Source: an uncultured Thermotogae bacterium
GTDB taxonomy: Bacteria; Bipolaricaulota; Bipolaricaulia; UBA7950; UBA9294
Length of the DNA: 64,000 nucleotides
Direction of reading: 5' to 3'
NCBI GenBank assembly: GCA_964608345.1
Contig: CAZSNG010000001.1
Location: 6,299 to 70,298, forward strand
Both the position numbers and the translations under genes were made by a program. Below, piece by piece: positions 23,721-54,699 of this stretch (positions are counted from its first letter, which is position 1; every line of letters starts with the position of its first letter). The notes below the pieces were generated by a model. That model ran no database searches, was not told the DNA's origin, and saw only the letters and a program-made list of their open reading frames with translations.

Positions 23721-24611
23721 TCACCCGCCGGCGTCCGGTTCACCTCGGCGGCAGGCGGCCGGGATGGCGGAGATTGCCTCCTGCGCGGCGGGCTCCGGAT
23801 CGAAGAATCGCGCCTCGAACGAAGGCATCGGATGGTGTCCCTGTGGCCACTGCCACGACGTGGCGAAGTCGACGGTGTCGATCGCGCACATCCGCCGGAA
23901 CGTCTCGCTGTCGATCGGGTTGGTGTTCGCGTTCAGCGAGGCGACGTAGAGGAGGCCGTGGTCGTGCGCCAAGGCCGATTGATGGCGATGGACGTCGATC
24001 GGATCGGAGAAGCCCGCCGGCAGCCTACCATGCACGACCTGACCGGAGGCGAAGCCGGCACCGGGCACACGTGCCATGTACGACGGCGGTGCGGTCGAGC
24101 CGATCGGGACGTCGCCAAACGCGGCGCGGATCAGCGCGAAGACGTCCGACAGTTCGTCGGGGTCCACCTCGAAGTCCGGTGGAAGCCCGGCCGGATCGTG
24201 CGGCTCGTCGAGGAACCGCACGCCCCAAACCGTCCCATCCTCGATGAACGGGGCAATCTGCTCGGAAGCGGCGAAGAACGGTTGCAGTTCGCGATGAACC
24301 GTCTCCATTCGAAGGTGTCCGGCCTCATCGAGGTAGGTGTCCGATGAAACGCTGCCGAGGGACAGGATCAGGCGCACGCCGCGCTCGCTGGCGAACGCAA
24401 GATCCGCTACGAGCGCCGCGGCGCCCCGCTCCCCGCGGTAGTGCTTGATCGCTCCGGTCATTCCCTTCGTGGTGAGGTGCTCGTTCGGGGTGTACATCGC
24501 GCCCCACGGAATCGCCGCGGACCGACGGTCCACAGATGCCGCGAGGAAGGAGCAGGCGGTCGCGAGCGCGATGGCTAGGAGCAGCGCCGATCTCCGCCGA
24601 CCCGCGGTCAT
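23721..24611 (-). CDS. Secreted hypothetical protein, possible TIM-barrel glycoside hydrolase (GH5/GH113-like NEP-type motif VRFLDEP)
   Basis: Signal peptide MTAGRRRSALLLAIALATAC. The family assignment rests on weak motifs only. Confidence 0.45.
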   Translation of the reverse strand: MTAGRRRSALLLAIALATACSFLAASVDRRSAAIPWGAMYTPNEHLTTKGMTGAIKHYRGERGAAALVADLAFASERGVRLILSLGSVSSDTYLDEAGHLRMETVHRELQPFFAASEQIAPFIEDGTVWGVRFLDEPHDPAGLPPDFEVDPDELSDVFALIRAAFGDVPIGSTAPPSYMARVPGAGFASGQVVHGRLPAGFSDPIDVHRHQSALAHDHGLLYVASLNANTNPIDSETFRRMCAIDTVDFATSWQWPQGHHPMPSFEARFFDPEPAAQEAISAIPAACRRGEPDAGG

Positions 24612-24636
24612 CTTCGAGCTTCCAGCAGCGCGGACG

Positions 24637-26037
24637 TCAGTCACGGAACAGGGCGTCGTCGAGGTTCGGCGACCAATCGTCTGCCCGGACCCGATCGGCC
24701 ATCTCCGCGATCCCGGCGAGCGGGACCGTCCGCGCCGTCGGTCGTCCGGCCAGGCGGTCTGCGAAGCCCCAGGCCGCGGCGTCGGACAGCCAATCGGCAG
24801 GCTCGGCGTTCGCGTCGTGATCGGGGAAGCCCGTGGCGAGCGACGCGCTCGGATCGATCTCCGACCGGACGTATGCGATGTCGCAGTTGAGGCGCGTCCA
24901 CAGCCCGGCCGTCTTCCGAAAGCCGTCGTACGCTTGGCGGATGTGCGGCTTGTCCGGCGCCGCCTGGACGTGGTCGAACGTGGCGAACGGGAGAAGAACC
25001 TTCATCTCGGGCAGCTTCCGCCCGATCGACGCGTAGTTGTGCACGGTGACGCGGTACGGCCAGAAATCGGCGGTCATCTGCGGCGTGGCGAGATCGTCCG
25101 GCCACGTGGCGAGCGTGAAGGCAGCGTTGTCGAGCAGCGCCTGGGTCAACGCGGGCGAGAACCAGCGGCGCCCTTGGATGTGCGGGCCCTTGTCGTCGAG
25201 AACGTAATCGGTCCCGCCGGGGACGCGGAAGACCGGTCGCCCCTCGGGAAACTCGCTGTTCTGGATCCAGTCGAGTGTCGAGTAGTCGACGGCGATGCGC
25301 GTCGGCTCGTATCCGGCCGGATCGTAGAACGGGTTGAAGACCGGCCGGCGAAGCGGATCGAAGTGGCCGATCTCGAGCGGGTACATCTCGGCCATCGTCG
25401 GGTTCTCCCGCCCGACGAAGTACCGCAGGCCGGGGAATGCCTCGCCGTGATACGCCATGACGTTCGTGGCGACGACCCCGGCGTGCGACGAGGCGAACAG
25501 GCCGACGTTGTCGTAGAGTGGGATCACGTCGAGCAGGTCGTGCAGGTGGGCGCCGTTGACGTCGGGAATGTCGCCGAGGCCGAACCGAATCGTATCGCGT
25601 AGCGCCGCGAGGGAGTCCGGGCCGCCGTAGTCGTAGACGCCGTCGCTCGAGATCCCCGTCTCGGGATCGGTCTTGCCGGGCCAGAGGTGGGAGATCGCGA
25701 TCGCGCCGACGTCGACCGGGTTGTAGACCAGGTGGAACGGTGTCTCCGCGAGCTCGTACTTCTCGACGAACCAGGTCGACGCGACCACGACGATCGGGGC
25801 GGCTGCACCGTACCTGGGGGATTCGGGAACGTCGATGCGAACGGCGATCCGTCCGACCTCGGGGCAGTCGATGTGCGTGGTGACGACGAGATTCCCTCCG
25901 CAATCCTCGGGGCAGAGTCCCTTCTCCCGCTCCACGTCGTCGCAGATCCCATCGCCGCACGGCGTCCCGCACGTGCCCGAGAGCGCGATCCACAGGAGGA
26001 GAGCGAGCAGCGCTGCCGCAGTTCCTCTCATGCGCAT
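24637..26037 (-). CDS. Secreted protein of unknown family (paralog A) with N-terminal Cys-rich module
   Basis: Start MRMRGT with RBS AAGGAGG 6 nt upstream and a signal peptide. Motifs NPFYDPAGYEPTRIAVDYSTLDW and DKPHIRQAYDGF are shared with the ORF at 53371-54699. Confidence 0.7.
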   Translation of the reverse strand: MRMRGTAAALLALLLWIALSGTCGTPCGDGICDDVEREKGLCPEDCGGNLVVTTHIDCPEVGRIAVRIDVPESPRYGAAAPIVVVASTWFVEKYELAETPFHLVYNPVDVGAIAISHLWPGKTDPETGISSDGVYDYGGPDSLAALRDTIRFGLGDIPDVNGAHLHDLLDVIPLYDNVGLFASSHAGVVATNVMAYHGEAFPGLRYFVGRENPTMAEMYPLEIGHFDPLRRPVFNPFYDPAGYEPTRIAVDYSTLDWIQNSEFPEGRPVFRVPGGTDYVLDDKGPHIQGRRWFSPALTQALLDNAAFTLATWPDDLATPQMTADFWPYRVTVHNYASIGRKLPEMKVLLPFATFDHVQAAPDKPHIRQAYDGFRKTAGLWTRLNCDIAYVRSEIDPSASLATGFPDHDANAEPADWLSDAAAWGFADRLAGRPTARTVPLAGIAEMADRVRADDWSPNLDDALFRD

Positions 26038-26130
26038 CTCCAACCTCCTTCGGGCCATCATACAGGCAGTCCCCCGCTGGCTGATGGGATGCTCGCCGGG
26101 TAAGGTAGAGCGGGAAGGGGTTGGCACTGC

Positions 26131-26676
26131 ATGCCGCGAGACCGCAGCAATCTCGTCTGGATCGACCTCGAAACGACGGGTCTGAGCGTCGGGAACCGAG
26201 CGATCCTCGAAATCGCAAGCATCGTCACGGACAAGGACCTGAGCGTTATTGGCGAGGGCCCGGCACTCGTGGTCTATCAGCCGGACGACGTCCTCGCGCG
26301 AATCGATCCGTGGTGCGAGCAGCAACACGGATTCTCGGGGCTACTCGAGGCGTCGCGGGCCTCCGACGTGTCGCTGCGCGACGCGGAACAGCAGACGCTG
26401 ACATTCCTGCGCAAGCACACTCACCGAGGTGTGGCACCGCTGTGCGGGAACTCGATCCTGCTCGACCGGCGATTCCTGATGCACTACATGCCCGAGTTGA
26501 ATGGACATCTCAGTCACCGCAACATCGATGTGAGCGCGATCAATGAACTCGCCTATCGCTGGTTCCCCGGCGCGATCGCGCGGCTCGACAAAGGGGTCAG
26601 GCATCGCGCTGCCGATGACATTCGCGAGTCGATCGAGGAGCTGCGACTGTATCGTCGCCTGATCTTCAAGGAATAG
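26131..26676 (+). CDS. orn: Oligoribonuclease (3'-5' exoribonuclease, DEDDh)
   Basis: Carries WIDLETTGL and the DEDDh exonuclease motifs. 181 aa. Confidence 0.9.
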   Translation: MPRDRSNLVWIDLETTGLSVGNRAILEIASIVTDKDLSVIGEGPALVVYQPDDVLARIDPWCEQQHGFSGLLEASRASDVSLRDAEQQTLTFLRKHTHRGVAPLCGNSILLDRRFLMHYMPELNGHLSHRNIDVSAINELAYRWFPGAIARLDKGVRHRAADDIRESIEELRLYRRLIFKE

Positions 26677-31374: not shown

Positions 31375-32505
31375 GTGATGATCTTTCTTTCGCGCGCGGA
31401 CGCGCTTCCCGGCCGGTCGCCTCGGGCCCTACGGCTCGGATACCTCTTTGGAGGCCTCCTACTCGTTGCGCTTGGAGCGGTGGCGGTCGCGTTCGAAGCG
31501 GATTGGGAGATGCTTCTGATCTACGACGCCGGCGCGGCGAAGTGGGAGATGGAGGGAGAGCTGGCCGTTGCCTGGTCGCGCGTGGGGTGGGATATCGGGT
31601 GCGAGATAGCGTTCGAGGAGTCGGTGTGGGATCGAGTCGAGGTCGAGGCGTCCTTCGAAGCGGAATTGGGCAGGATCGGCGCAGCCATCCGATGGGATCC
31701 GGTCATGCGTACGTTCACCAAGCTGTCGCTCGAGGCCTGGATCGAGGCGGCGGGGATCGACGCGAAATGCGACTTCGATCTGTACGCCACTCGCTGCTGG
31801 ACCGATCTGAAGACGGCGTGGGAGGTCGCCGGCTGTGAGATCGATATCGCTGTGCGCCTCGGCGCGTCGAAGCGGTTCTGCGTCGACTTCTACCGGCTCG
31901 ACGCCGCGGTGTCCCTCGAGGTCGAGGACATCCCGATTGACGTAGATGCGCGCTTCACCGCGAAACGGGGATTCGAACGGCTCGACGTCGAAACGGCCTT
32001 CACGGTCCCGCCCTGGCTGGCGATCGATGTGGACGCTCGCTGGACGGCCGACGGTCGCACCGTGTCATTCGAGTCGGAGATGGAAACGCTGGCGTCTTGT
32101 GAGGGAGCCTCAGCCTCGATCGAGCTACTCGGAGAGGCCGTGCTGACGGATTTGCTGCACCTCGAGGGACTGCGCGTCACCGGCTTGGGGTTCGAGGCGG
32201 CGTGGAACGGTGTCTGGGTCGAGAGCCGGACGAGCTTCGATCCGGGACGAAACAAGTCCGTGACCGGGCACAAGGCGTACGGTCGGGCCGTCGGAGTCGG
32301 GTGTGACGTGGACGGTCGATGCGATCGGGAGGTCGAGGTCGCGCTGTGGGCGCTCTCCGTCGATCCGTCGAGGGTCCGGGATTGGGATCGGACGGTGGCC
32401 GAGATCTCCGTCCGTCTCGACGCATCGTTGGAGTTCTCCCTCGCCGCGTCCCTCGAGTCCGGAGCGCTCCACGCAGTGGAGTTGGAGGTCGAGCTCGGAG
32501 GATAG
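31375..32505 (+). CDS. Secreted or membrane-anchored beta-rich repeat protein (family member 1 of 3)
   Basis: An N-terminal hydrophobic segment is followed by alternating acidic/hydrophobic beta-strand-like repeats (VEVEASFEAEL, LEVEDIPIDVDARF, VELEVELGG). Confidence 0.55.
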   Translation: MMIFLSRADALPGRSPRALRLGYLFGGLLLVALGAVAVAFEADWEMLLIYDAGAAKWEMEGELAVAWSRVGWDIGCEIAFEESVWDRVEVEASFEAELGRIGAAIRWDPVMRTFTKLSLEAWIEAAGIDAKCDFDLYATRCWTDLKTAWEVAGCEIDIAVRLGASKRFCVDFYRLDAAVSLEVEDIPIDVDARFTAKRGFERLDVETAFTVPPWLAIDVDARWTADGRTVSFESEMETLASCEGASASIELLGEAVLTDLLHLEGLRVTGLGFEAAWNGVWVESRTSFDPGRNKSVTGHKAYGRAVGVGCDVDGRCDREVEVALWALSVDPSRVRDWDRTVAEISVRLDASLEFSLAASLESGALHAVELEVELGG

Positions 32506-34912: not shown

Positions 34913-34942
34913 GGTTGACAGGCCCAAACGGCTCGCCCTACG
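34913..34942 (+). promoter_or_regulatory. Candidate sigma70 promoter (TTGACA, 18-nt spacer, TACGAT)
   Basis: Seen about 35 nt upstream of the ATG at 34975. Confidence 0.35.
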
Positions 34943-34974
34943 ATGGCGACCATCTGCTCGATGAGGGGGATGGT

Positions 34975-35787
34975 ATGGTTCGAACCAAGGTGGTGTTGCT
35001 GTTGTTCGTCGTGGTGGCGGCCGTAGGAGTCGGCGGATGGGCGGATGAGGAAACGGGGCTTTCCGGGGCCGTCGGAGCCGAACTGGCATTCCTGCCTGCA
35101 TTCGCAGGCGACCTTTGGGTCGATCTCGACTGGAATCTGGGCGGATGGAGCCTCGGTGCCCTGACGGAGATCGGGTTTCTTCCCGCGTTCACGGCGAGGT
35201 GCACGGGCACGGTCGAGGCCACGCTCAGCGTCTTCGACCTGCGCGGCACAGCGATCATCGACGTTGTCCCATTCGACTTCGCGGGCCTGAACCTGTTTGC
35301 CGGTGTCGGGCTTCTCGACATGAGCGGGGAGGGCTTCGCGGTTGCGGTCGACGCGGGGGCTGTCTTCGAGATTCTTCCGGCGCTCGACGCCGGGCTGTCG
35401 CTCGACATCGACGCCTCCTACGGGATCTTCACTGCGTGGGGAGCGTTCGATTTGGGGATTCCCGGCTTCGGCACCACCGTTTGGGCCGGAGCGGAGATCC
35501 GCGCCCTCGACCTCGAGCTGGAAGACGGGCAGTTGACCGTCGACCTCGGGGCCTCGACGTTCATCCTGCCGGCCGGCGATACGCGGCTCTGGCTCGACGT
35601 AGCTCTCCGTCTGGGGATCATCACGGTGACTGCCGAAACCGATTTCGAGCTGAACCCGTTCGGCCTGGCTCAACAGCGGATCGAGATCGAGGTCGGGTTC
35701 GACGGGTTGACGCTCTACGCCTGGGGAGGTTTCACCGGCGTCGGCGACCTGACCGCAGGAGTCGGCGGGACGTACGAGTTCCCGTAG
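34975..35787 (+). CDS. Secreted beta-rich repeat protein (family member 2 of 3)
   Basis: Signal peptide MVRTKVVLLLFVVVAAVGVGGWA. Carries LELEDGQLTVDLGA and IEIEVGFDGLTLYAWGGF repeats. Confidence 0.6.
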   Translation: MVRTKVVLLLFVVVAAVGVGGWADEETGLSGAVGAELAFLPAFAGDLWVDLDWNLGGWSLGALTEIGFLPAFTARCTGTVEATLSVFDLRGTAIIDVVPFDFAGLNLFAGVGLLDMSGEGFAVAVDAGAVFEILPALDAGLSLDIDASYGIFTAWGAFDLGIPGFGTTVWAGAEIRALDLELEDGQLTVDLGASTFILPAGDTRLWLDVALRLGIITVTAETDFELNPFGLAQQRIEIEVGFDGLTLYAWGGFTGVGDLTAGVGGTYEFP

Positions 35788-44412: not shown

Positions 44413-44730
44413 CTAGTCGTCCGTCCGCTCGATCTTGAAGATGACCGGGCGAAGGCCGTCGTTGCAGCACGTGATCGTGAAACCGGGATCCGCGACCCAC
44501 GGGATCGACGCGCCGTACATGACCATCGCGACCTCGTGGCGGATGTCCGGCCACGCCCGCTCGCAGAAGCCCTCGGGCATCGTGGGCCAGTCCGTCGAGA
44601 CGAAGGTCTGCCCTTCCTCGAACACAAAGCACTTCCCAAAGCTCGCCTTGAACGCCTCGTCCCGGATGTGCTCGTCGAGGATGTCCTGCTGGAATGTCCG
44701 CTTCAGGACCGTGATCTTGGCCTTCGGCAT
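44413..44730 (-). CDS. TIGR04076-family small protein (copy 2)
   Basis: 105 aa, MPKAKITVLK...CCNDGLRPVIFKIER. Its start lies 2 nt after the stop of copy 1. Confidence 0.7.
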   Translation of the reverse strand: MPKAKITVLKRTFQQDILDEHIRDEAFKASFGKCFVFEEGQTFVSTDWPTMPEGFCERAWPDIRHEVAMVMYGASIPWVADPGFTITCCNDGLRPVIFKIERTDD

Positions 44731-44732
44731 GC

Positions 44733-45035
44733 CTAGCCCTCGATCCGCTGGATCCGGAACGTCACCGGCCTCAGGCCGTCGCTGCAGCAGGGGAACTCGG
44801 TGCCCGGGGTCGGGTTCGCGCCCATCATCGTCAGTGCGACGACCTTCCGGATGTCGCTCCACGCCCAGTCGCAGAACCCCTCAGGCTTCGATCCGAACGG
44901 GCCTTCAACCTCGAATGTCTGCCCGACCTCGAAGACCGAGCAGATCCCGGCTTCGCCGCTCAGGTGTGGGAGGTGCTCGTCGATGACGTCTTTGTGAAAC
45001 GCCTTCTTGATCACGGTGATGCGTGCGCTTGCCAT
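44733..45035 (-). CDS. TIGR04076-family small protein (copy 1)
   Basis: 100 aa, MASARITVIKK...CCSDGLRPVTFRIQR. It is paralogous to the adjacent gene. Confidence 0.7.
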   Translation of the reverse strand: MASARITVIKKAFHKDVIDEHLPHLSGEAGICSVFEVGQTFEVEGPFGSKPEGFCDWAWSDIRKVVALTMMGANPTPGTEFPCCSDGLRPVTFRIQRIEG

Positions 45036-45091
45036 GTCGCCTCCTTGAGGGGGAAGTGTACCTCTCGGTGCTCCGGTCTTCCGCCGAGCCG

Positions 45092-45982
45092 CTACGCGTT
45101 CGGGTCCGCCGCGAGCAGGCGCTCATCGAACCACGGCTTGACGTGAACCAAGTGCTCGCGCGGGAAGCCATGCCCGGCCCCGTCGATGACGATCAGCGTC
45201 GAGTCGACGCCAGCGGCGCGAAGTGCCTCGGCGAACGCGATCGACTGCGCGATCGGCACCGTCGGATCGTCGCCTCCGTGCATGATCAGGAACGGAGGAT
45301 CGTCCGCGTCGACGTGATAGATCGGACTGGCAAGCCGCGCCAGCGCCTCGTTCTCCTCGACCGATCCGCCGAGGAGCAGGTCCTCGGGCATCGGACGGCG
45401 CGTGCTCGCGCCGCGCTGCTCGAGCAGGGCGAGGAAGTCGGTCGGTCCGAAGAAGTCGCACACCGCCTGGACGCAGCTCGACTGGTCGAGGTGCTCGCCA
45501 ACCGCTCCCTCGAGATCCTCGTCGTCGCATGTCGTCCCGAGCAGCGCGACGAGGTGCCCGCCGGCCGACGATCCCCACGCGCCGAACCGGCTTGGATCGA
45601 TGCCGTAGGTCTCCGCGTGCGCGCGCAGCCAGCGGACGGCCGCCTTGACGTCGTGGATCTGGGCCGGGAAGACGGCTGTCTGGGAGAGCCGGTAGTCGAT
45701 TGACGCGACGGCGTACGACTCGCTGAGGGTGTTCGGCGCGTACGTCCCGTCCTTGCTCCCGGCGCGCCACGCGCCGCCGTGGACCCAGAGCACGAGCGGA
45801 ACCGGATCGGTCGGTCGTGGATCGGGGAGGTACAGGTCGAGCTTCAGAGAGATCCCGTCGACGACGGCGTACTCCAGATCTCGAAGCACCGTGTGTCCGG
45901 CCGACGTCGCACCGGCAGCGACCGCCGCGGTCGACACGAGGATGCAGATCCACAGACTGCGTCTTGATAGGCGTCGGTTCAT
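45092..45982 (-). CDS. Secreted alpha/beta-hydrolase (esterase/lipase, fold-3)
   Basis: Carries the HGGAW oxyanion motif and the GSSAGG nucleophile elbow. A signal peptide is present. Confidence 0.8.
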   Translation of the reverse strand: MNRRLSRRSLWICILVSTAAVAAGATSAGHTVLRDLEYAVVDGISLKLDLYLPDPRPTDPVPLVLWVHGGAWRAGSKDGTYAPNTLSESYAVASIDYRLSQTAVFPAQIHDVKAAVRWLRAHAETYGIDPSRFGAWGSSAGGHLVALLGTTCDDEDLEGAVGEHLDQSSCVQAVCDFFGPTDFLALLEQRGASTRRPMPEDLLLGGSVEENEALARLASPIYHVDADDPPFLIMHGGDDPTVPIAQSIAFAEALRAAGVDSTLIVIDGAGHGFPREHLVHVKPWFDERLLAADPNA

Positions 45983-46158
45983 GCAATCATCCTAGGCGCC
46001 AACCCGCGTTGCGGCAACCGTCAGTGTCTTCACGATTCTGCCACAGGTCTGGACGACGGTGTCCAAAGGTCCCGTCTACGCTCACGGTGCGGGATCGGAC
46101 GGGGAGCAACTGCAACCGAGGTTCCGCCAAGCTACTGCGAGAGGACGGGAGGGTTCCG

Positions 46159-46809
46159 ATGACGCGCAAGGGTTTGATTCGGCTGGCGGTGGGGCTGTTC
46201 CTTGCTGCCAGCGTGACCGGCTTCGTGGTGACGGAGACGGTCGCACAGGTCCAGATGAGCGGCATGATGTTCGGCTTCGGGGGCTACCCCGGCGGGACAC
46301 TGCACGAAGTGTTCGAGATGCAGCGCGGGGGGCCGAACGCACCGGTCCGGACGTACACGATCGACATCGTCCCCGATGGAGACGGCTACCACATGACCGA
46401 GACGATCGACGCGCCGCTGCTGATGCGCGACGACATCGGATCCGGCCTTGGCCGAAGCGGCGCCGCCGGGACGGCCGGCGCTCGATACGACGAGGAAGGG
46501 GTGCGGCAGAACATCGACCTTACGCCGCTCTCGGCGCTCGAGGAGCGTGGCGTGATCGTCGAACCGAACCAGAACTACTACCTGCCCGACGGCGCGCGCC
46601 TGGTGACCGGCGATGTCGAGACGATCGCGGGGATCGAAGTCGTGATGGGAACGTTCCTCCATCCGAGCTACCCGAGCCAGAAGGTCACGATGTCGTTTGC
46701 CGATCCGGAGATCGAGGCGCTGCTCCTCTTCCCGGTCTATATGCTGCGCGAAGTGGACGGAGAGCAGGATTACCTGGTGCAGTTGGTCGAATTCAGCCAC
46801 GAGCTGTAG
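46159..46809 (+). CDS. Secreted hypothetical protein (first gene of the MacB-type ABC module)
   Basis: Signal peptide MTRKGLIRLAVGLFLAASVTG. No recognisable domain. Confidence 0.55.
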   Translation: MTRKGLIRLAVGLFLAASVTGFVVTETVAQVQMSGMMFGFGGYPGGTLHEVFEMQRGGPNAPVRTYTIDIVPDGDGYHMTETIDAPLLMRDDIGSGLGRSGAAGTAGARYDEEGVRQNIDLTPLSALEERGVIVEPNQNYYLPDGARLVTGDVETIAGIEVVMGTFLHPSYPSQKVTMSFADPEIEALLLFPVYMLREVDGEQDYLVQLVEFSHEL

Positions 46810-46818
46810 GGAGGCGCG

Positions 46819-47655
46819 ATGATCGAGGTGAAGGGCGCATCGCGCACGTTCGCGATGGGTGCGACCCAGGTGCACGCCCTGCGTGGCGTCGACCTGAGGA
46901 TCGAGGACGGCGAGTTCGTCGCCGTCATGGGACCGTCCGGCTCGGGGAAGAGCACGCTGATGTACCTGCTCGGGGCGCTCGACCGGCCGAGCGCGGGGAG
47001 CATCCTGCACGGCAACGAGGATGTCGCGGACTGTGATTCGAACGGACTGGCCGACCTTCGAGGCCGAAGGATCGGCTTTGTGTTTCAGATGTTCAGCCTG
47101 ATGCCGACGCTCTCGGCGTTCGACAACGTCGAGCTTCCGATGGTCTTCCAGCGGATTCCGCGGAGTGAGCGAAAGGTCCGCGCGAAGGAGCTCCTCGAGT
47201 TGGTCGGAATGGGAGACCGGATGGGGCACCTCCCGAGCGAGCTGTCCGGAGGAGAGCAGCAGCGGGTGGCGGTCGCCCGGGCGCTCGCGAACAAGCCGGA
47301 TCTGCTGCTGGCGGACGAGCCGACCGGGAACCTCGATTCAGCGACCGGCGAGCAGATCATCGGCCTGCTGGAGTCGCTGAACCGCGGCCGAAGGACGACG
47401 ATCGTCCTGGTCACGCACGACACGGCGGTGGCGAGCCACGCCGACCGGATCATCAGCTTGTGGGACGGCGTCGTCTTCTCTTCCGGTGAATCCGGAAGAG
47501 AAGACGTGGAAGAAGGCGCAGCGGCCACGCCTTCATCTGTTGATGGAGCGAGCCAACTGGAGGCCCGGAACGCCGATGCGCCAGGTCAAGCCGGAGGCGA
47601 AGACGAGGAAGACGGCGGGAGCGCAGCCCCTTGCGGAGGAGGTGGTTCCCAGTGA
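46819..47655 (+). CDS. ABC transporter ATP-binding protein (MacB/LolD/FtsE type)
   Basis: Walker A GPSGSGKST, the signature LSGGEQQR, and Walker B LLLADEPTG are present. Confidence 0.88.
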   Translation: MIEVKGASRTFAMGATQVHALRGVDLRIEDGEFVAVMGPSGSGKSTLMYLLGALDRPSAGSILHGNEDVADCDSNGLADLRGRRIGFVFQMFSLMPTLSAFDNVELPMVFQRIPRSERKVRAKELLELVGMGDRMGHLPSELSGGEQQRVAVARALANKPDLLLADEPTGNLDSATGEQIIGLLESLNRGRRTTIVLVTHDTAVASHADRIISLWDGVVFSSGESGREDVEEGAAATPSSVDGASQLEARNADAPGQAGGEDEEDGGSAAPCGGGGSQ

Positions 47656-48983
47656 TCCGGGACTACCTGAGGCTGTCGATGAAGAGCCTGCGGCATCGGT
47701 CGCTGCGTTCGTGGCTGACGGTACTTGGCATCGTCGTTGGTGTAGCGGCCGTCGTGGCCCTGATCGCGATCGGCGAGGGGATGCAGCGGTCGGTGGAGAA
47801 GCAGTTCGAGACGATCGGGTACAACACGGTCATCGTCCTCCCGGCGCCCGAAGGGGCCGGCGATCGACTCGCGGAGGGTGCGCCAGCCGCCGAAGGAGTC
47901 GGTCAAGGGCAGGTGGGAGGCCGGCTCGGCGGCATGATGGGCGGATTCATGGGGATGCGCGGCGGTGCGGGGGAGGCGTCTCCGGTTGACATGACGGCGC
48001 TCGAGGCGCTCCCGATGGTCGTCGCGGCCGGCGCACAGCGGACCGAGACGGCGATGGTCACGTCGGAGGGCATGGACGGGCAGGGGTTCCTCCGTCTGTC
48101 TGGAATGACGCCGTCGATGCCGGAGAGCTTCCCCGGGTACTTCGGCGGCTACGTCATCGCCAAAGGCCGCACGTTCACCGATGAGGACCTGCACGTCGTC
48201 GTCCTTGGAGCCAGCGTCGCGAACGACCTGGTGGTCGGAGTTGGCGACCACATCGTCATCGAGACGACGCCGTTCGAGGTGATCGGCATCCTGGGTCAGC
48301 CGGACGAAGAAGGGCGTGGAGGGTTCACGATCGGCAACATGCGCAACAGCCTGTTCGTCCCAATCGCCGCGTTGGAGAACCTGTACGAGGGCGTCGGGAC
48401 GATCACGCAAGCGTTGGTCGAGGTCACCGACGGGACCGGCATTGAACAGGCGAGCCAACTGATTCGTGCCGCCTTCACCCAAGCAGGGACGCCGGTGATG
48501 ACCACGACTGCTTCCGAGCTGAGCGCGCAGATCAAGGGCGTGCTGTCGAGCCTCAACATGACGTTGTCGGCGATCGCCGGGATCTCGCTTCTCGTGGGCG
48601 CAATCGGCGTGATGAATACGATGTACATGTCGGTGCTCGAACGGACGCGCGAGATCGGGATCATGAAGGCCGTAGGCGCCAAGGATCGTGACGTGCTCGG
48701 GCTCTTCCTGATCGAATCGAGCGTGCTTGGCATCGTCGGCGGTGTGCTGGGCATCCTTCTCGGCGCCGGCATCAGCGGGCTGGCAGGCCGCTTCATCTCC
48801 GGCTCGCTGACCCTCGGAGCGGTGAGTCGAATGGCCGGGTCGGCCGGTCTGCAGCCGGCGTTCAGCGCGTGGTTGATCTGCGCCGCACTCGGCCTGTCGT
48901 TGGTCCTGGGGGCACTCGCCGGCGTGCTGCCGGCGCGGCGTGGGGCGAAGCTGCCACCGGTCAAGGCGTTGCGGTACGAGTAG
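47652..48983 (+). CDS. MacB/FtsX-type ABC permease with large periplasmic domain
   Basis: GTGA overlap with the ATPase stop. An N-terminal TM is followed by a ~250-aa periplasmic domain and a C-terminal FtsX 3-TM bundle. Confidence 0.85.
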   Translation: MIRDYLRLSMKSLRHRSLRSWLTVLGIVVGVAAVVALIAIGEGMQRSVEKQFETIGYNTVIVLPAPEGAGDRLAEGAPAAEGVGQGQVGGRLGGMMGGFMGMRGGAGEASPVDMTALEALPMVVAAGAQRTETAMVTSEGMDGQGFLRLSGMTPSMPESFPGYFGGYVIAKGRTFTDEDLHVVVLGASVANDLVVGVGDHIVIETTPFEVIGILGQPDEEGRGGFTIGNMRNSLFVPIAALENLYEGVGTITQALVEVTDGTGIEQASQLIRAAFTQAGTPVMTTTASELSAQIKGVLSSLNMTLSAIAGISLLVGAIGVMNTMYMSVLERTREIGIMKAVGAKDRDVLGLFLIESSVLGIVGGVLGILLGAGISGLAGRFISGSLTLGAVSRMAGSAGLQPAFSAWLICAALGLSLVLGALAGVLPARRGAKLPPVKALRYE

Positions 48984-48992
48984 GGAGGCGCG

Positions 48993-50309
48993 ATGCATTG
49001 GGTGCTCTCGTGGATTCGCAGGGTTTACGGACCGTGGTTGCTGCTGCCGTTCGCGGCGGCGGGGGCGCTGCTTCTCGTCGCCTGGGCTGCGATCGGGGCG
49101 GGCTCGATCGGCTGGGAGGCCGAGCTCGTCGCGGCCCTCTCGGGGCCGACGTTCGGGCTCGACGGCTCATCGACGGTCTTCCGAGGCGAGTACGCCTGGG
49201 GAGACGTTGGCGGCGGAATGGGAGGGGCGAGTCAGACGTTCGGTGAGAACGGATCCCGGGTGGACGGGACCCTCTGTCTCCCGCTGCCGAACGCGACCAC
49301 CGGGACGGTCGCTGTCGGCGTCTACCACAGGACCGATCTGGTGATCGACTGGCCGGTCGGCACGTGGGGCATTGCCGCGGACGCTTCCCTCTCGCTCGAC
49401 ACCTCACGGATGACGAGTCTCTCTGCGACTGCGAACGTGACGGCGTACGGAACGTCGACGACGGCGACGTTCCACCTCAATGAGGATCACGGCGTGTACC
49501 GGAGCGGTCTGACGCTCGAACTGGCCGGAACAGCCCTTTCGGGGATGGGCGTCTCGATCGCCGCGTCGTTCGGTGCGCTGCTCGGTTCGGCACCCGCAGA
49601 ACCATGTGGCTTCGAGTTCCGGGGATTCGCTGTCGGAGTGGAGGGCCTTCCGTGGTGTTGCGTTCACACGGACGTCGATCTGACCTTCGGGCAGGGCGGG
49701 TTCGAGCAGGTGGAGATCGACGTCGACATCGACCTTGCAGAGGGGCTGCTGACGTTCGACGGGTCGCTGTGGTTCGAGATCGATGAGAAGCGAGTGAACC
49801 TGATCCCCCGCATCCACCTGAATCAGCAATGCATCTGGTTCAACGTCGGGATCGAGCCGCAGGGAATCGGCTCAGGGGCACCGAACGTGATTGAGTCTCT
49901 CGTTGTCCGCGGCTTCGGCGTCACCGCCTGCGACATCGGCACGGCGGAATTCAGTGCGATCGCGACGCTCGGCACCGGCCTGTACAGGGCGAAGCGCTCC
50001 TCCGATCTGGAGCTCCACGCCGGTGGCTACTACATCGCGCTCGATCCGACGGCCAATCCAGGGCAGTACGTGCAGACGAACTTCGCGATGGTGTGGACGG
50101 TGGCACAGGGCTTCATGAACGCCGAGTGGACGATCGACGCCTACTTCAGTGCGGGCGGGGCGACCCTGTTTGACCTCGCGCTACTCACCGCGGAGTGGGC
50201 GCAGCAACTGGGGTCGGGTCTTGATGTCCGGCTGGCGCTCCAAGTCGATCCGACCGGCGCAGCGCACAAGCTGCTGTTCGGCGTCACCACCGAGGCGCCA
50301 CTTCCCTAG
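48993..50309 (+). CDS. Secreted beta-rich repeat protein (family member 3 of 3), last gene of the ABC module
   Basis: A signal peptide is present. Repeats are similar in character to the ORFs at 31375 and 34975 (VEIDVDIDLAEGLLTFDGSLWFEID). Confidence 0.6.
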   Translation: MHWVLSWIRRVYGPWLLLPFAAAGALLLVAWAAIGAGSIGWEAELVAALSGPTFGLDGSSTVFRGEYAWGDVGGGMGGASQTFGENGSRVDGTLCLPLPNATTGTVAVGVYHRTDLVIDWPVGTWGIAADASLSLDTSRMTSLSATANVTAYGTSTTATFHLNEDHGVYRSGLTLELAGTALSGMGVSIAASFGALLGSAPAEPCGFEFRGFAVGVEGLPWCCVHTDVDLTFGQGGFEQVEIDVDIDLAEGLLTFDGSLWFEIDEKRVNLIPRIHLNQQCIWFNVGIEPQGIGSGAPNVIESLVVRGFGVTACDIGTAEFSAIATLGTGLYRAKRSSDLELHAGGYYIALDPTANPGQYVQTNFAMVWTVAQGFMNAEWTIDAYFSAGGATLFDLALLTAEWAQQLGSGLDVRLALQVDPTGAAHKLLFGVTTEAPLP

Positions 50310-50365
50310 CCGGACTCGATCGTGGCGAGCGGGTACCATGGCTGCGACCTGAGAGGAGATCACGA

Positions 50366-50842
50366 ATGCCTGAGCAACCCCAGCTGGGTCCCGATGCCGT
50401 TGTTTCGCTGCGCGAGATCACCGGCGAGACCGTGACCACGGTCTGCAAACTAAGCGACACGATGCCCGAGGAGCAGAACAAGATGGTCGCGCCGAACGCG
50501 GTGTCGATCGCCCAGGCACACTTCTCTGAGCACGCGTGGTTCCGCGCGATCTACGCCGCCGACGCGCCGGTCGGCTTCGTGATGCTGTGGGACGACGGAG
50601 AGAAGGGCGAGTACTTCCTCTGGCGGCTGATGGTTGCTGCCGAGCATCAGCGGAAGGGATACGGGCGTCGGGCGATCGAGCAGCTGATTAAGTACGTGAG
50701 GACGCGGCCGAACGCGGCCGAGCTGAAGGCGAGCTACGTCCCGATGGATGACGGCCCGGAGGGCTTCTACCACAAGCTTGGTTTCGAGGAGACCGGCGAG
50801 GTCATGCACGGCGAGCACGTCATCCGCCTGCCGCTGACGTAG
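50366..50842 (+). CDS. GNAT family N-acetyltransferase
   Basis: Motif A reads HQRKGYGRRAIEQL. Confidence 0.75.
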   Translation: MPEQPQLGPDAVVSLREITGETVTTVCKLSDTMPEEQNKMVAPNAVSIAQAHFSEHAWFRAIYAADAPVGFVMLWDDGEKGEYFLWRLMVAAEHQRKGYGRRAIEQLIKYVRTRPNAAELKASYVPMDDGPEGFYHKLGFEETGEVMHGEHVIRLPLT

Positions 50843-51182
50843 CGAAGCGTGGCTGCGGAGCGCTGGGATCGAGGTGGCATAGGATCCGACGCCAGGCCCC
50901 GAGCTTCCGCTCCGCCGGGATTGCGTGAGCAGGGCTCGTCGATGGGAGCCGGAACAGCTCGAGCGGCCGGCGACCATCCTCCGGCAGCGCCCGAAGCACA
51001 CGCCGGAGAAGCGCCCGTTCGGCCTTCGCCTCGTTGAAGGCGATTGCGCGGATCGTCGGGCGCTCTCTCAGCAGATCGGTGATGTCGTTCGGCGTCTCGG
51101 TCGCCTCGACGATGTCGGCATCCAGGCTCCCGGACTGTTCGCAGCTCTGCAGGATGTCCCACAGCCCGATCCAGCGGTCGGC
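50820..51182 (-). pseudogene. Truncated uracil-DNA glycosylase-superfamily gene (Mug / hypoxanthine-DNA glycosylase-like) lacking its N-terminal catalytic motif region and start codon
   Basis: A minus-strand frame without any ATG/GTG/TTG start encodes ...PTIRAIAFNEAKA...LELFRLPSTSPAHAIPAERKLGAWRRI, matching UDG motif-2 regions. A stop codon lies immediately upstream of this frame. Confidence 0.45.
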
Positions 51183-51305
51183 TCATGCGTAGTTGTCAAT
51201 CAGCGATCATCCCTTCTAGTATCTCCGCAGCTCTCTCATGGAAACCGACGAAACGATCGGCCGGTTCGTCGAGGAGAGGCGGCTGCAAGGGAAGAGGAGG
51301 CGAAA

Positions 51306-52436
51306 GTGAAGCGGATTCTACTCTCCGTGCTGTTGGTGATGGGCATCTCGGTCATGGCGGTGTGCGGGGGTCTGGAGCTGTGGAGGTCGCAGCAGTTCCA
51401 CATCGTTGACAATCAGATCGCTCGGGCGGCCCTCTTGACGACGGACGGCTACTACATCTTGGCCGGTGACGGCGACATGCGTTCCGATGCCGTGCTCATC
51501 CGAGCCAGCCTCGACTGCAACTACCCCTTGGTCTGGGCGAAGGTCTACACAGACACGTTCGCCCGGATGTTCAGCGACGTCATCGAGATTGCCGACGGTG
51601 GAGTCGTCGCTGGAGGGTCGGCGTTCTACTCGATCTATGCGGGGGATGAGAACGTCTGGCTCGTCAAGGTTGACAGACAAGGAGACACGATCTGGGAGAA
51701 GCAGTACGGCCGGACGAGCGAGCAGAATGACGTCTACGCGATGACGGCTGCGTCGGACGGCGGGTTCGTCGTCAGTGCGCTTCGGCTGCCCCACGCTGGA
51801 GGCTCGGCGGCGACGTGGCTGTTGAAGCTCGATGCGGACGGGAATCTCTTGTGGGAGAAGACCTTCGCGAGCGGCGTCGGGCTGTCGATCATCGAGGCTT
51901 CCATAGGCGGATTCCTGATCAGCGGACTGCAGAACATCGCCCAGAGCCTTAACAGCTACGTCTGGGCGTTGCGAGTCGATGCCCAGGGGAACCCGATCTG
52001 GGAGAAGACGTACACCGACCTCGAGATCTACGCGCAGCTGTCGAATCAGGTCGTGGAAGCTCCGAACGGGGACTTCGTCATTGCCGGGAAGCAGTTCCTT
52101 CTCAGGGTCGATCCTGCGGGGCAGGTCGTGTGGGACCGGTCACTCCCTGGCCGCTTTCTCGACACGGTTGCGTTCACGGACGACGGGAGGCTGGCGGTGG
52201 GCGGCGCCTACAACGACAACTGCTCCTACGATCACCTCTACGTCGCGCTCCTGTCTGACGATGGCACCACGACCTACTGGGAGGACATCGAGCTGTTGTT
52301 CAACAGCTCGGCGGCCCAGGTGCTGCCAGATCCGTACGACGGGATCGCGGTCGCCGGATGGATCCAGACCGTACCGGGCACAGGCCCAATGGATCCGGGA
52401 ACGATCGACTTCGTCCTCGCCCGCTTCCTCGAATAG
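51306..52436 (+). CDS. Lipoprotein with beta-propeller-like ~40-aa repeats (recurrent WEK motif)
   Basis: GTG start with RBS GAGGAGG. Lipobox-like VMAVCGG. Repeats read DTIWEKQYG, NLLWEKTFA, NPIWEKTYT and QVVWDRSL. Confidence 0.65.
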   Translation: MKRILLSVLLVMGISVMAVCGGLELWRSQQFHIVDNQIARAALLTTDGYYILAGDGDMRSDAVLIRASLDCNYPLVWAKVYTDTFARMFSDVIEIADGGVVAGGSAFYSIYAGDENVWLVKVDRQGDTIWEKQYGRTSEQNDVYAMTAASDGGFVVSALRLPHAGGSAATWLLKLDADGNLLWEKTFASGVGLSIIEASIGGFLISGLQNIAQSLNSYVWALRVDAQGNPIWEKTYTDLEIYAQLSNQVVEAPNGDFVIAGKQFLLRVDPAGQVVWDRSLPGRFLDTVAFTDDGRLAVGGAYNDNCSYDHLYVALLSDDGTTTYWEDIELLFNSSAAQVLPDPYDGIAVAGWIQTVPGTGPMDPGTIDFVLARFLE

Positions 52437-53370: not shown

Positions 53371-54699
53371 TTAGGAGCTTCTGAGCGTGGCGTCCAGATC
53401 AGGTTCCCACACGTCGTAGTACGTGCGGTCGCACATCTCGGCGACGGCGGCGAGGGGGACGAGGACGTTGGTGTTGACGCCGGCCGGTCGCGGGTATCCC
53501 CACGAGCGAATCGTCATCCACGTCGACGGCTCGCGGTTCGCTGCGTTGTCGGGGATCGCTTTGCCGGAACTGTCTCCGCCGATGAAGGCGTCGACATAGG
53601 CGCGGTCCGGGTTCAGACGGCACCACAGCCCGGCGGTGTGGTGGAAGCCGTCGTATGCCTGGCGGATGTGCGGCTTGTCGATGGCGGTTTGCACGTGGTC
53701 GGCGGCGGCGAAGACGAGCATGACCTTCAGGTCGGGCAAGACCTGCGCGAGCCGCGAGTAGCTACCGACCGTCTCGCGGGATGGCCAGTTCGCCGCGGCC
53801 TCCTCCGGCGTGGCGAGCGTCGCGGGCCACGTGTCGCGGGTCAGCGCTCCGTTGTCGAGCAGCGCCTGGAGCAGGTCGGTCGACCAGTAGTCCTTGCCGT
53901 ACATCTGGGGATGCTTGAACGAGCAGATGAAGTCCGCGCGGCCTTCGACCGCGAACGCGGGGCGAGCATGCTCCGCTGACCAGTAGACAGTGGAGTAGTC
54001 GATCGCGATCGAGGTCGGCGTGTAGCCGGCTGGGTCGTAGAACGGGTTGTGCACCGGACGCCCGCTGTCGTCATCCCAGTACCCCGGTTCGAGCGGGTAG
54101 AGCGCGTCGATCGTCGGGTTCTCCCGTCCGACGAAGAACCGGACCCGCTGGAGATCCTCGCCGTGGAGGGCGAGGAGGTTCGTCGCGGCGATGCCGGAAT
54201 GCGAGAAGGCGTACAGGCCGGCGACGTCGTACAGGATCGACACGTCGACCTGTTCATCGAGCATGTGACCGTTGACGTCCACCGTCTCGCCGGTCGCGAA
54301 CCGGACGACGTCGCGCAGCGCCGCGAGGCAGTCGGGACCGCCATAGTCGAACGTTCCTTCGCTGGCGATGCCGGTTCCCCGGTCATCCTTGCCCGGCCAA
54401 AGATACGTCACGTACACCGCGCCGAGCGCGTCGGGGTCGAGTTGGTCGTTGAAGCCGGACGATGCGGTGAAGAAGCCGGAGACGTTGACGACGACCGGTG
54501 CGCCGTTGGCGTACCGCGGCGCGCTCGGGGCTCGGATGGCGACGGCGATGCGGCCGATGCCCGCTGATTCGATGAACGTGATGGTCGTTCCCTCGGGGGA
54601 TCCTCCAGCGATGGCGGACTGGAGCGCGATTGCGATGACCAAGGCAGCGAGGAGAAGGAACCTGATGGTGGGCGCAGCGCGATGAGACGGGGCGTTCAC
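53371..54699 (-). CDS. Secreted protein of unknown family (paralog B of 24637-26037)
   Basis: A signal peptide is present. It shares the NPFYDPAGYTPTSIAIDYSTVYW and DKPHIRQAYDGF blocks with paralog A. Confidence 0.7.
   Translation of the reverse strand: MNAPSHRAAPTIRFLLLAALVIAIALQSAIAGGSPEGTTITFIESAGIGRIAVAIRAPSAPRYANGAPVVVNVSGFFTASSGFNDQLDPDALGAVYVTYLWPGKDDRGTGIASEGTFDYGGPDCLAALRDVVRFATGETVDVNGHMLDEQVDVSILYDVAGLYAFSHSGIAATNLLALHGEDLQRVRFFVGRENPTIDALYPLEPGYWDDDSGRPVHNPFYDPAGYTPTSIAIDYSTVYWSAEHARPAFAVEGRADFICSFKHPQMYGKDYWSTDLLQALLDNGALTRDTWPATLATPEEAAANWPSRETVGSYSRLAQVLPDLKVMLVFAAADHVQTAIDKPHIRQAYDGFHHTAGLWCRLNPDRAYVDAFIGGDSSGKAIPDNAANREPSTWMTIRSWGYPRPAGVNTNVLVPLAAVAEMCDRTYYDVWEPDLDATLRSS

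Follow-up and report, generated by a model that had tools for sequence, protein, structure and literature searches.

A MacB-type ABC transporter module with a LolA-like carrier candidate and a predicted outer-membrane barrel in Bipolaricaulota

Introduction

The question of how deep-branching diderms with a Toga-type envelope and no lipopolysaccharide (LPS) furnish their outer membrane with hydrophobic material is raised in concrete form by a four-gene locus in a 64,000-nt stretch of DNA (66% GC), hereafter the window, from an uncultured Thermotogae bacterium placed in the Bipolaricaulota by GTDB (GenBank assembly GCA_964608345.1, contig CAZSNG010000001.1). The four genes, here called g1 to g4, encode a small secreted protein, an ATP-binding cassette (ABC) ATPase, a MacB-type permease, and a larger beta-rich secreted protein, and an earlier note made from the sequence alone had proposed them as a dedicated export or envelope-stress system for the last of these. 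The module has the look of a route, not described so far, by which greasy molecules reach the outer membrane, and it occurs in a phylum for which the usual routes have been reported missing. Positions are those of the window unless a related locus is named.

The Bipolaricaulota (Acetothermia) have been described with cell-envelope extensions, no LPS genes, and BamA-like markers (PMC6092417), and cryo-electron microscopy of the first isolate, a Gram-negative organism, shows a Toga-like outer membrane (bioRxiv 10.1101/2025.11.21.689855). A survey that placed Bipolaricaulota and Fraserbacteria beside Thermotogae described Lol, with LolA traced through Pfam PF03548, as 'practically absent from Terrabacteria', where outer-membrane lipoproteins were taken to be missing ancestrally (bioRxiv 10.1101/2021.05.31.446380); Bipolaricaulota are likewise reported to be without Mla homologues (PMC10665443). 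Surveys thus report no Lol, Mla, or LPS-transport machinery in the phylum, for which the module is a concrete candidate. A literature search returned no paper linking Bipolaricaulota with MacB, and LolA was mentioned in surveys only.

Results

A tightly coupled module conserved among Bipolaricaulota

The four genes are co-directional (Table 1), and their GC content at third codon positions (0.76–0.85) is as high as in the real genes of the window. Spacers of 9 nt separate g1 from g2 and g3 from g4, and g2 and g3 overlap by 4 nt. A mechanical list of open reading frames (ORFs) started g3 at TTG 47631; because orthologues open with M/V-LRD(Y/F) a few bases after GGAGGTG, the true start is GTG 47652, which overlaps the g2 stop as GTGA. 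The gene order and GTGA coupling read from the sequence earlier are thus confirmed. A scan across 45000–51500 found no terminator-like site, and scans of the divergent region ahead of g1 found no sigma-70-like site, terminator, Rfam match, or convincing operator inverted repeat; the module promoter presumably lies within this region. No regulator gene adjoins the module in the window itself.

Homologue clusters of g4 (12) and g1 (50) were recovered from metagenomes and metagenome-assembled genomes (MAGs), none of them with a Pfam domain. Around the g4 homologues (38–46% identity), the order was g1 (single or as a tandem pair), ABC ATPase, MacB/FtsX permease, and g4, within wholly different flanks. 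The g1 homologues lay in the same order, and the gene past the permease was a g4 homologue by profile comparison (probability 99.2–99.8%), which recovered members that a word-based search had missed. Scanning GTDB species representatives with the g1 alignment yielded 21 loci, all from Bipolaricaulota, Acetothermia, or 'uncultured Thermotogae' MAGs except one from Candidatus Fraserbacteria. Mapping with hidden Markov models placed g1-g2-g3 in every related locus, amid unrelated flanks, with g4 next in every locus long enough to judge, save L027 and L025, the latter with only a short, weak, and doubtful g4 match. Identities to the window proteins were 34–85% (g1), 54–77% (g2), 35–89% (g3), and 24–62% (g4), which makes g4 the fastest evolving of the four.

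By these comparisons, the conserved unit is a g1-g2-g3 core with g4 as a near-constant fourth member. The four-gene module proposed in the earlier note therefore stands, on its tight junctions, its lack of an internal terminator-like site, and an order kept in relatives; the note's own ground for abandoning it, namely that the outer genes are unlinked to the transporter, fails, as the order is kept despite unrelated flanks. The esterase, GNAT, MFS, and patatin genes that flank the module in the window do not recur in related loci and were ruled out as parts of it.

Two relatives show unusual arrangements. In Acetothermia bacterium 64_32 (L006), the g4 homologue is distributed over two ORFs corresponding to its N- and C-terminal halves, either through a frameshift or assembly error or as a genuinely split barrel. 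In L027, a convergent deacetylase-like gene follows the permease, and the g1 protein is 35% identical to that of the window and lacks a conserved loop (GRSGAAGxAGARY) described below.

The ABC core belongs with MacB

The g2 protein matches ABC_tran (PF00005, 1.7e-32), and its translation shows Walker A (GPSGSGKST), signature (LSGGEQQR), and Walker B (LLLADEPT) motifs. Its top NCBIfam matches are MacB (1.9e-68) and LolD (3.4e-68), with YbbA, DarD, FtsE, and DevA (2.7e-59) also matched, all at scores below the equivalog cut-offs. The g3 protein matches MacB_PCD (9.7e-31, residues 27–280) and FtsX (9.6e-23, residues 314–443) in Pfam and has the layout of a type VII permease, with an N-terminal transmembrane (TM) helix, a periplasmic core domain (Porter/Sabre), and a C-terminal FtsX three-TM module. 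The solved chains nearest to it are Acinetobacter MacB (5e-36), the pneumococcal Spr0695 permease (8e-35), other MacBs, and YtrF (3e-21), whereas LolF, LolC, and LolE chains reach merely 3e-12 to 4e-5. Against the lolCE model TIGR02212 it scores 74 bits (cut-off 362 bits), which leaves it outside LolC/LolE/LolF, and against FtsX models 38 bits (cut-off 250 bits). On these matches, g2 and g3 together make a type VII ABC transporter of the MacB clade rather than an orthologue of LolCDE or LolDF.

Neither a MacA/HlyD-type membrane-fusion protein nor a TolC-type duct is present in the window module or in related loci with called genes, which upholds the earlier remark that the former is missing and extends it to the latter. 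In MacB-fold transporters (MacB, LolCDE, FtsEX, HrtBA), ATP hydrolysis drives movements of periplasmic domains that expel or extract substrates from the periplasmic side. We know of no transmembrane substrate channel or path in the MacB and LolCDE structures, nor of any MacB-fold transporter that moves proteins across the inner membrane.

Both window proteins carry low-complexity sequence that is variable or absent in orthologues, namely an acidic C-terminal tail of ~55 aa in g2 and a Gly/Met-rich insert, GGRLGGMMGGFMGMRGGAG, in the periplasmic domain of g3. Orthologous permeases span 395–473 aa and ATPases 224–293 aa.

The g1 protein has a predicted LolA-like fold

The g1 alignment begins with basic residues and a hydrophobic core that lead up to a conserved A-x-A↓Q site; cysteine and a lipobox are absent. 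This indicates a soluble periplasmic protein after cleavage of a Sec signal peptide. Neither g1 nor 38 family members matched any Pfam family even at E ≤ 1, the LolA family PF03548 included, or any NCBIfam family, and PDB sequence profile searches with family alignments A1, A2, and A3 returned chance-level matches only. The AlphaFold2 model (38 sequences; pLDDT 81.4, pTM 0.72), however, predicts a LolA/LolB/RseB/LppX-like fold, i.e., the unclosed beta-barrel of the LolA superfamily, whose members are mostly carriers or sensors of acyl chains and lipids. The earlier note had listed g1 as an unknown secreted protein and seen no lipoprotein-release partner of known type; the latter holds at the level of sequence, but given its predicted fold the protein is no longer anonymous and would be a partner of just the sort seen as lacking.

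The modelled protein is a small, monomeric-type LolA fold without a coiled-coil hairpin able to bridge the periplasm. Its Gly/Ala-rich GRSGAAGxAGARY loop (residues ~95–110) is conserved and modelled at low confidence, and might, speculatively, be a lid or docking element. On the predicted fold, the g1 family would be an unannotated one of the LolA type that invariably accompanies a MacB-type ABC transporter. Some loci carry tandem g1 duplicates, i.e., two ~220-aa paralogues, each with a signal peptide and without a lipobox cysteine.

The g4 protein is predicted to be an outer-membrane barrel

By inspection of alignment A1, the g4 N-terminus has a basic n-region, a hydrophobic core of 15–20 residues, and small residues at −3/−1 (AYG↓S, AGA↓G), i.e., a Sec signal peptide as expected of outer-membrane barrels; no further hydrophobic segment follows it, and there is no lipobox. 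The AlphaFold2 model, of moderate confidence, is an all-beta hairpin meander of ~20–22 long strands, in which hydrophobic and polar faces alternate strongly across the alignment, and its Foldseek matches, all at low TM-scores, are exclusively membrane beta-barrels (the best being TonB-dependent transporters, usher, VDAC, and porin-like proteins). Of 60 sampled members of the wider family, 48 have F, W, or Y as their last residue, preceded by a hydrophobic strand of alternating pattern, the classical C-terminal signal of outer-membrane proteins. The most fitting reading of the protein is as that branch of an unannotated family of outer-membrane barrels which accompanies ABC genes. That it carries a Sec-type signal peptide of its own, and that its fold matches are confined to membrane barrels, speaks against the earlier idea of a beta-rich exported cargo, and a component of the outer membrane is more likely. 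The domain analysis of g1 and g4 that the note had proposed thus returned no Pfam, NCBIfam, or PDB sequence family, and folds were obtained by structure prediction.

An exhaustive profile search of 1.84 billion representatives recovered at least 159 g4 relatives (clusters at 50% identity; 77 at E ≤ 1e-10), mostly of 360–500 aa, and a further homologue search with a deep g4 alignment added at least two more distant members. No Pfam or NCBIfam family was matched by 60 sampled relatives and the family alignments; a NuoJ match in alignment A3 was set aside, as it came from one mis-called or fused sequence (P0159). Distant members P0209, P0210, and P0119 are stand-alone genes with no ABC neighbour, and intermediate members P0075 and P0080 again sit after a MacB permease. 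Three stand-alone members end in an aromatic residue (Table 1), one stand-alone member sits among PKD/WD40 surface-protein genes, and at least one distant member is annotated as from Candidatus Bipolaricaulota. The family may be a major unannotated porin-like outer-membrane protein family of these phyla.

Within the ABC-associated subfamily, cysteines C205 and C223 are invariant and C280 nearly so, and a block, DLVIDWPVGTWG / TANVTAYGTSTTATF, is highly conserved; disulfides, or a site at which a partner docks, are conceivable here for the outer-membrane protein of an anaerobe. A role for g4 as Omp-beta of a Thermotoga-type tether was considered and found no support, no SLH/Omp-alpha neighbour being present in any context seen.

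Identical junctions reflect a shared translational design and chance

The window holds exactly two copies of the 16-mer GTAGGGAGGCGCGATG, one in front of g2 and one in front of g4. About 11 of its 16 positions are functionally fixed by the TAG stop, the GGAGG Shine-Dalgarno (SD) sequence, and the ATG, and one of 100 shuffles gave two matches at up to two mismatches, so that the recurrence is weakly beyond chance. In the closest relatives (L009, L010, and L011), both junctions read TAG-G(G)AGG-4 to 6 nt-ATG with different spacer bases, and in more distant loci the g3/g4 spacer is 100–140 nt. The design of a stop abutting a strong SD sequence, indicative of tight translational coupling, is conserved in the near clade. 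Because relatives keep this design but not the spacer letters, functional constraint plus chance is the best explanation for the letter-for-letter match seen here, and a repeat or regulatory element such as an operator was ruled out, orthologous loci sharing the stop-SD-start design only. The identical junctions of the earlier note are real, but their identity is nothing special beyond a design common to close relatives.

Genes upstream of the module suggest conditional expression

A PadR-family regulator gene lies directly upstream of g1 in six loci (L008/L020, L024, L025, L026, and L033) of a more divergent clade, which suggests ligand-inducible expression. In six others (L007/L014, L013, L015, L017, L018, and L019), forming another clade, the gene at this place encodes a conserved lipoprotein with an L-S/T-G-C-G lipobox and LTXXQ (Spy/CpxP/ZraP-like) helical repeats, which could be a stress chaperone or even a cargo of the module. 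Elsewhere, winged-helix regulators or an AbrB/MazE-like gene are found. Since PadR regulators or Spy-like lipoproteins precede the module in relatives, a conditional role related to envelope stress or detoxification is suggested rather than a constitutive biogenesis pathway. The same genes make the envelope-stress half of the earlier proposal plausible, unlike the half that took g4 as the cargo.

Table 1. Coordinates of the module, its junctions and other features of the window, and of features in homologous loci (in the numbering of each locus).
Feature	Sequence	Position	Strand	Description
g1	Window	46159-46809	+	216 aa; GGGAGGG ahead of ATG; predicted LolA-like fold
g2	Window	46819-47655	+	278 aa; ABC ATPase, MacB/LolD/FtsE group
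g3	Window	47652-48983	+	443 aa from GTG; MacB-fold (type VII) permease, FtsX 4-TM module
g4	Window	48993-50309	+	438 aa; predicted outer-membrane beta-barrel with signal peptide
Junction 1	Window	46806-46821	+	g1 stop TAG, SD GGAGG, 4-nt spacer, g2 ATG; first copy of GTAGGGAGGCGCGATG
Junction 2	Window	48980-48995	+	g3 stop TAG, SD GGAGG, 4-nt spacer, g4 ATG; second copy of GTAGGGAGGCGCGATG
Divergent intergenic region	Window	45983-46158		Between esterase gene and g1
Esterase gene	Window	45092-45982	-	BD-FAE/alpha-beta-hydrolase, secreted; divergent from g1
GNAT acetyltransferase gene	Window	50366-50842		Downstream of g4
g2 acidic tail	Window	47480-47652		Low complexity
g3 Gly/Met-rich insert	Window	47850-48000		Low complexity
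g4 cysteines	Window	49605, 49659, 49830		C205, C223, C280
Paralogous ~100-aa proteins	Window	44413-44862, 44733-45035	-	Adjacent; no Pfam match
ORFs without Pfam family	Window	51300-52436, 31375-32505, 34915-35787	+	Coding-like
ORFs without Pfam family	Window	53371-54699, 23721-26328	-	Coding-like
PadR gene	L008	129-524		Upstream of g1
PadR gene	L024	6009-6479		Upstream of g1
PadR gene	L025	3247-3642		Upstream of g1
PadR gene	L026	1677-2069		Upstream of g1
PadR gene	L033	4004-4405		Upstream of g1
Lipoprotein gene	L007	6367-6990		Upstream of g1
Lipoprotein gene	L013	1941-2612		Upstream of g1
Lipoprotein gene	L015	1914-2642		Upstream of g1
Lipoprotein gene	L017	5890-6438		Upstream of g1
Lipoprotein gene	L018	5695-6477		Upstream of g1
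Lipoprotein gene	L019	4060-4989		Upstream of g1
Tandem g1 pair	L001	3326-4686
Tandem g1 pair	L005	976-2317
Tandem g1 pair	L012	5773-7175
Two-ORF g4 homologue	L006	9607-10290, 10363-10920		N- and C-terminal halves
g1-g2-g3 locus	L027	6501-10145		Without g4
Stand-alone g4 member	L030	7001-8218		Aromatic C-terminus
Stand-alone g4 member	L035	6001-7293		Aromatic C-terminus
Stand-alone g4 member	L036	6001-7191		Aromatic C-terminus

Other features of the window

Two paralogous proteins of ~100 aa, encoded by adjacent genes, share the conserved motif ...ITV[IL]KK/RxF..D..DEH...PEGFC..AW.DI...CC.DGLRPV.F.I.R. Five further coding-like ORFs match no Pfam family (Table 1); some have signal-peptide-like N-termini, and they are typical dark matter of the phylum.

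Discussion

A candidate relay from the inner to the outer membrane

The four genes may form one envelope-spanning relay in an atypical LPS-less diderm, comprising an ABC extractor, a periplasmic carrier of hydrophobic cargo, and an outer-membrane barrel, a reading to which we give about even chances. It is the most economical model because a MacB motor is translationally coupled to a predicted LolA-fold protein and followed by a predicted barrel, with neither a membrane-fusion protein nor TolC, in a host with an outer membrane. In such a relay, g2 and g3 would make up an inner-membrane MacB-fold (type VII, 'mechanotransmission') ABC transporter, whose ATP-driven periplasmic domains would pick up a cargo of hydrophobic or amphiphilic nature (candidates are lipids, lipopeptides, lipoproteins, and toxic hydrophobic compounds), either at the outer face of the inner membrane or within the periplasm. 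This cargo would be passed to the LolA-like half-barrel of g1 and ferried over the periplasm to the g4 barrel, which would accept it and insert it into, or pass it through, the outer membrane. Rather than a housekeeping equivalent of Lol, we probably have here a conditional system linked to stress or detoxification.

Several observations weigh against this relay. The permease lies outside the LolC/E/F clade, and g4 is not obligatory, as L027, the most divergent locus, has g1-g2-g3 without it. The g4 model (12 sequences) has a pLDDT of 62.8, with residues 12–121 below 50; its TM-scores to solved barrels are low (0.28–0.37) and point to no specific solved relative; and the window g4 and its close subfamily end in L-P, not in an aromatic residue. 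A LolA-like fold alone is also no proof of lipid carriage, since RseB, which has the same fold, is a sensor. GerS likewise uses a LolA-like fold to activate an amidase (bioRxiv 10.1101/2025.01.13.632879). The function, the cargo, the direction of transport, and the interaction and hand-over between the parts are all things that we purely infer.

Alternative explanations

The predicted fold of g1 and the near-equal scores of g2 with LolD and MacB models would also fit a housekeeping equivalent of Lol, in which g2/g3 perform a LolDF-like release, g1 serves as LolA, and g4 takes the place of LolB. Classical-lipobox lipoproteins do occur in these genomes, directly upstream of g1 in one clade, and as the LolA Pfam model finds nothing in the phylum, a sequence-invisible analogue could have been missed (bioRxiv 10.1101/2021.05.31.446380). 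However, the MacB affinity of g3 greatly exceeds its match to LolF/LolC/LolE or to the lolCE model, the upstream PadR regulators suggest an inducible system, g4 is missing in L027, and an accessory one is suggested by the duplicated g1 genes in tandem and by the variability of the accessory genes; set beside the presumed ancestral absence of outer-membrane lipoproteins in Terrabacteria, these make a Lol equivalent unlikely.

We consider just as improbable an efflux pump for drugs, peptides, or toxins analogous to MacAB-TolC, with g4 as the exit duct and g1 as an adaptor substitute or substrate-capture protein, which overlaps with the relay and differs from it by a continuous duct and a xenobiotic cargo. 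PadR regulators often control efflux and detoxification genes, so their presence upstream in six loci fits such a pump, as do the MacB-clade permease and the accessory, variable character of the module. Against it, no locus holds a HlyD/MacA-type adaptor or a TolC-type protein, the g1 fold has no hairpin with which to bridge the periplasm, and the predicted g4 barrel resembles porins and TonB-dependent transporters rather than the alpha/beta tunnel of TolC.

That g4 is instead a cargo, exported or assembled with the help of the ABC transporter and chaperoned in the periplasm by g1, seems very unlikely to us, even though members of its subfamily show strict linkage to the ABC genes and LolA-dependent piggy-back targeting of some outer-membrane proteins is discussed in literature cited in PMC6304351. 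With its own Sec signal peptide, g4 does not need the ABC transporter to cross the inner membrane, and the stand-alone distant paralogues indicate that the fold can be made without the module; moreover, L027 has g1-g2-g3 and no g4. The MacB-fold structures discussed above, which to our knowledge lack a transmembrane substrate channel, argue in the same direction.

Finally, signalling or enzyme activation, in which an FtsEX-like motor would act via a GerS/RseB-like g1 on a periplasmic enzyme or stress response and g4 would be an unrelated, recruited porin, is likewise very unlikely. In its favour, FtsEX-type ABCs are mechanotransmitters, the LolA-like fold of GerS is an allosteric activator, and one clade has a Spy/CpxP-like stress protein encoded upstream. 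Against it, related loci show no conserved hydrolase, anti-sigma, or sigma gene beside the module, g3 has a full MacB periplasmic core domain and falls far below the FtsX cut-off, and the strict linkage of g4 across 24–62% identity argues for a functional partner.

Significance

The relay would supply a route in a setting where profile-based surveys could not have seen one, since sequence profiles would miss the module because g1 and g4 match no curated family. Two unannotated protein families are defined here, the predicted LolA-fold family of g1 and the predicted outer-membrane barrel family of g4, and, with a cultured member of the phylum now reported, the hypothesis can be tested. Even a stress-induced efflux device would be a new coupling of a MacB pump to the outer membrane without a membrane-fusion protein or TolC. 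Going further, Bipolaricaulota and Fraserbacteria, sister phyla of Thermotogota, might possess their own ATP-driven lipid/lipoprotein shuttle to the outer membrane, in which an ABC transporter of the MacB clade would work with a LolA-fold carrier invisible at sequence level and with a dedicated beta-barrel receptor or insertase replacing LolB; this is a possible if rather doubtful extension. If true, LolA-type shuttling would not be a Gracilicutes invention, but either of greater age than assumed or put together convergently within the Terrabacteria.

Comparison with known systems

The Lol system of Gracilicutes (LolCDE/LolDF, LolA, LolB) resembles the module in combining a MacB-fold ABC transporter, to whose LolD models g2 scores as well as to MacB models, with a LolA half-barrel carrier and an outer-membrane acceptor. 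It differs in that the module permease is of the MacB clade and g1 has no LolA sequence similarity; in place of LolB, a LolA-fold lipoprotein, the module has a large, predicted integral beta-barrel without a lipobox, and the duplicated g1 copies, which lack the lipobox cysteine, supply no LolB receptor either. The module parts are also all in one operon, which is probably inducible.

DevBCA-HgdD, a glycolipid exporter, is a MacB-type pump that exports lipids in a diderm of the Terrabacteria. Like MacAB-TolC, it shares its permease family with the module, and g2 also matches DevA (see above). Both differ in having the cognate membrane-fusion adaptor (MacA/HlyD) and TolC-type duct, where the module has a predicted LolA-fold protein and a predicted porin-like barrel. 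In Proteobacteria, pairs of DUF1329 (LolA-like) and DUF1302 (outer-membrane barrel) proteins near RND/MMPL transporters form a related arrangement of carrier, barrel, and inner-membrane transporter (PMC6304351), although the motor is RND/MMPL rather than ABC, there is no sequence similarity, and their function is likewise unproven.

The nearest described analogue is the BBJ23-BBJ29 cluster of Borrelia, a computationally proposed export system whose genes likewise unite a homodimeric MacB-like ABC transporter with a LolA-like protein and a beta-barrel of the outer membrane (PMC13078400), and likewise in an LPS-less diderm. The Borrelia barrel is of the Omp85 type, whereas the best fold matches of g4 are to TonB-dependent transporters, usher, VDAC, and porin-like proteins, and the two TPR proteins and seventh gene of the Borrelia cluster are not seen in the module. 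The phylum differs as well, and with no sequence relationship evident, the likeness would lie in the logic of the parts.

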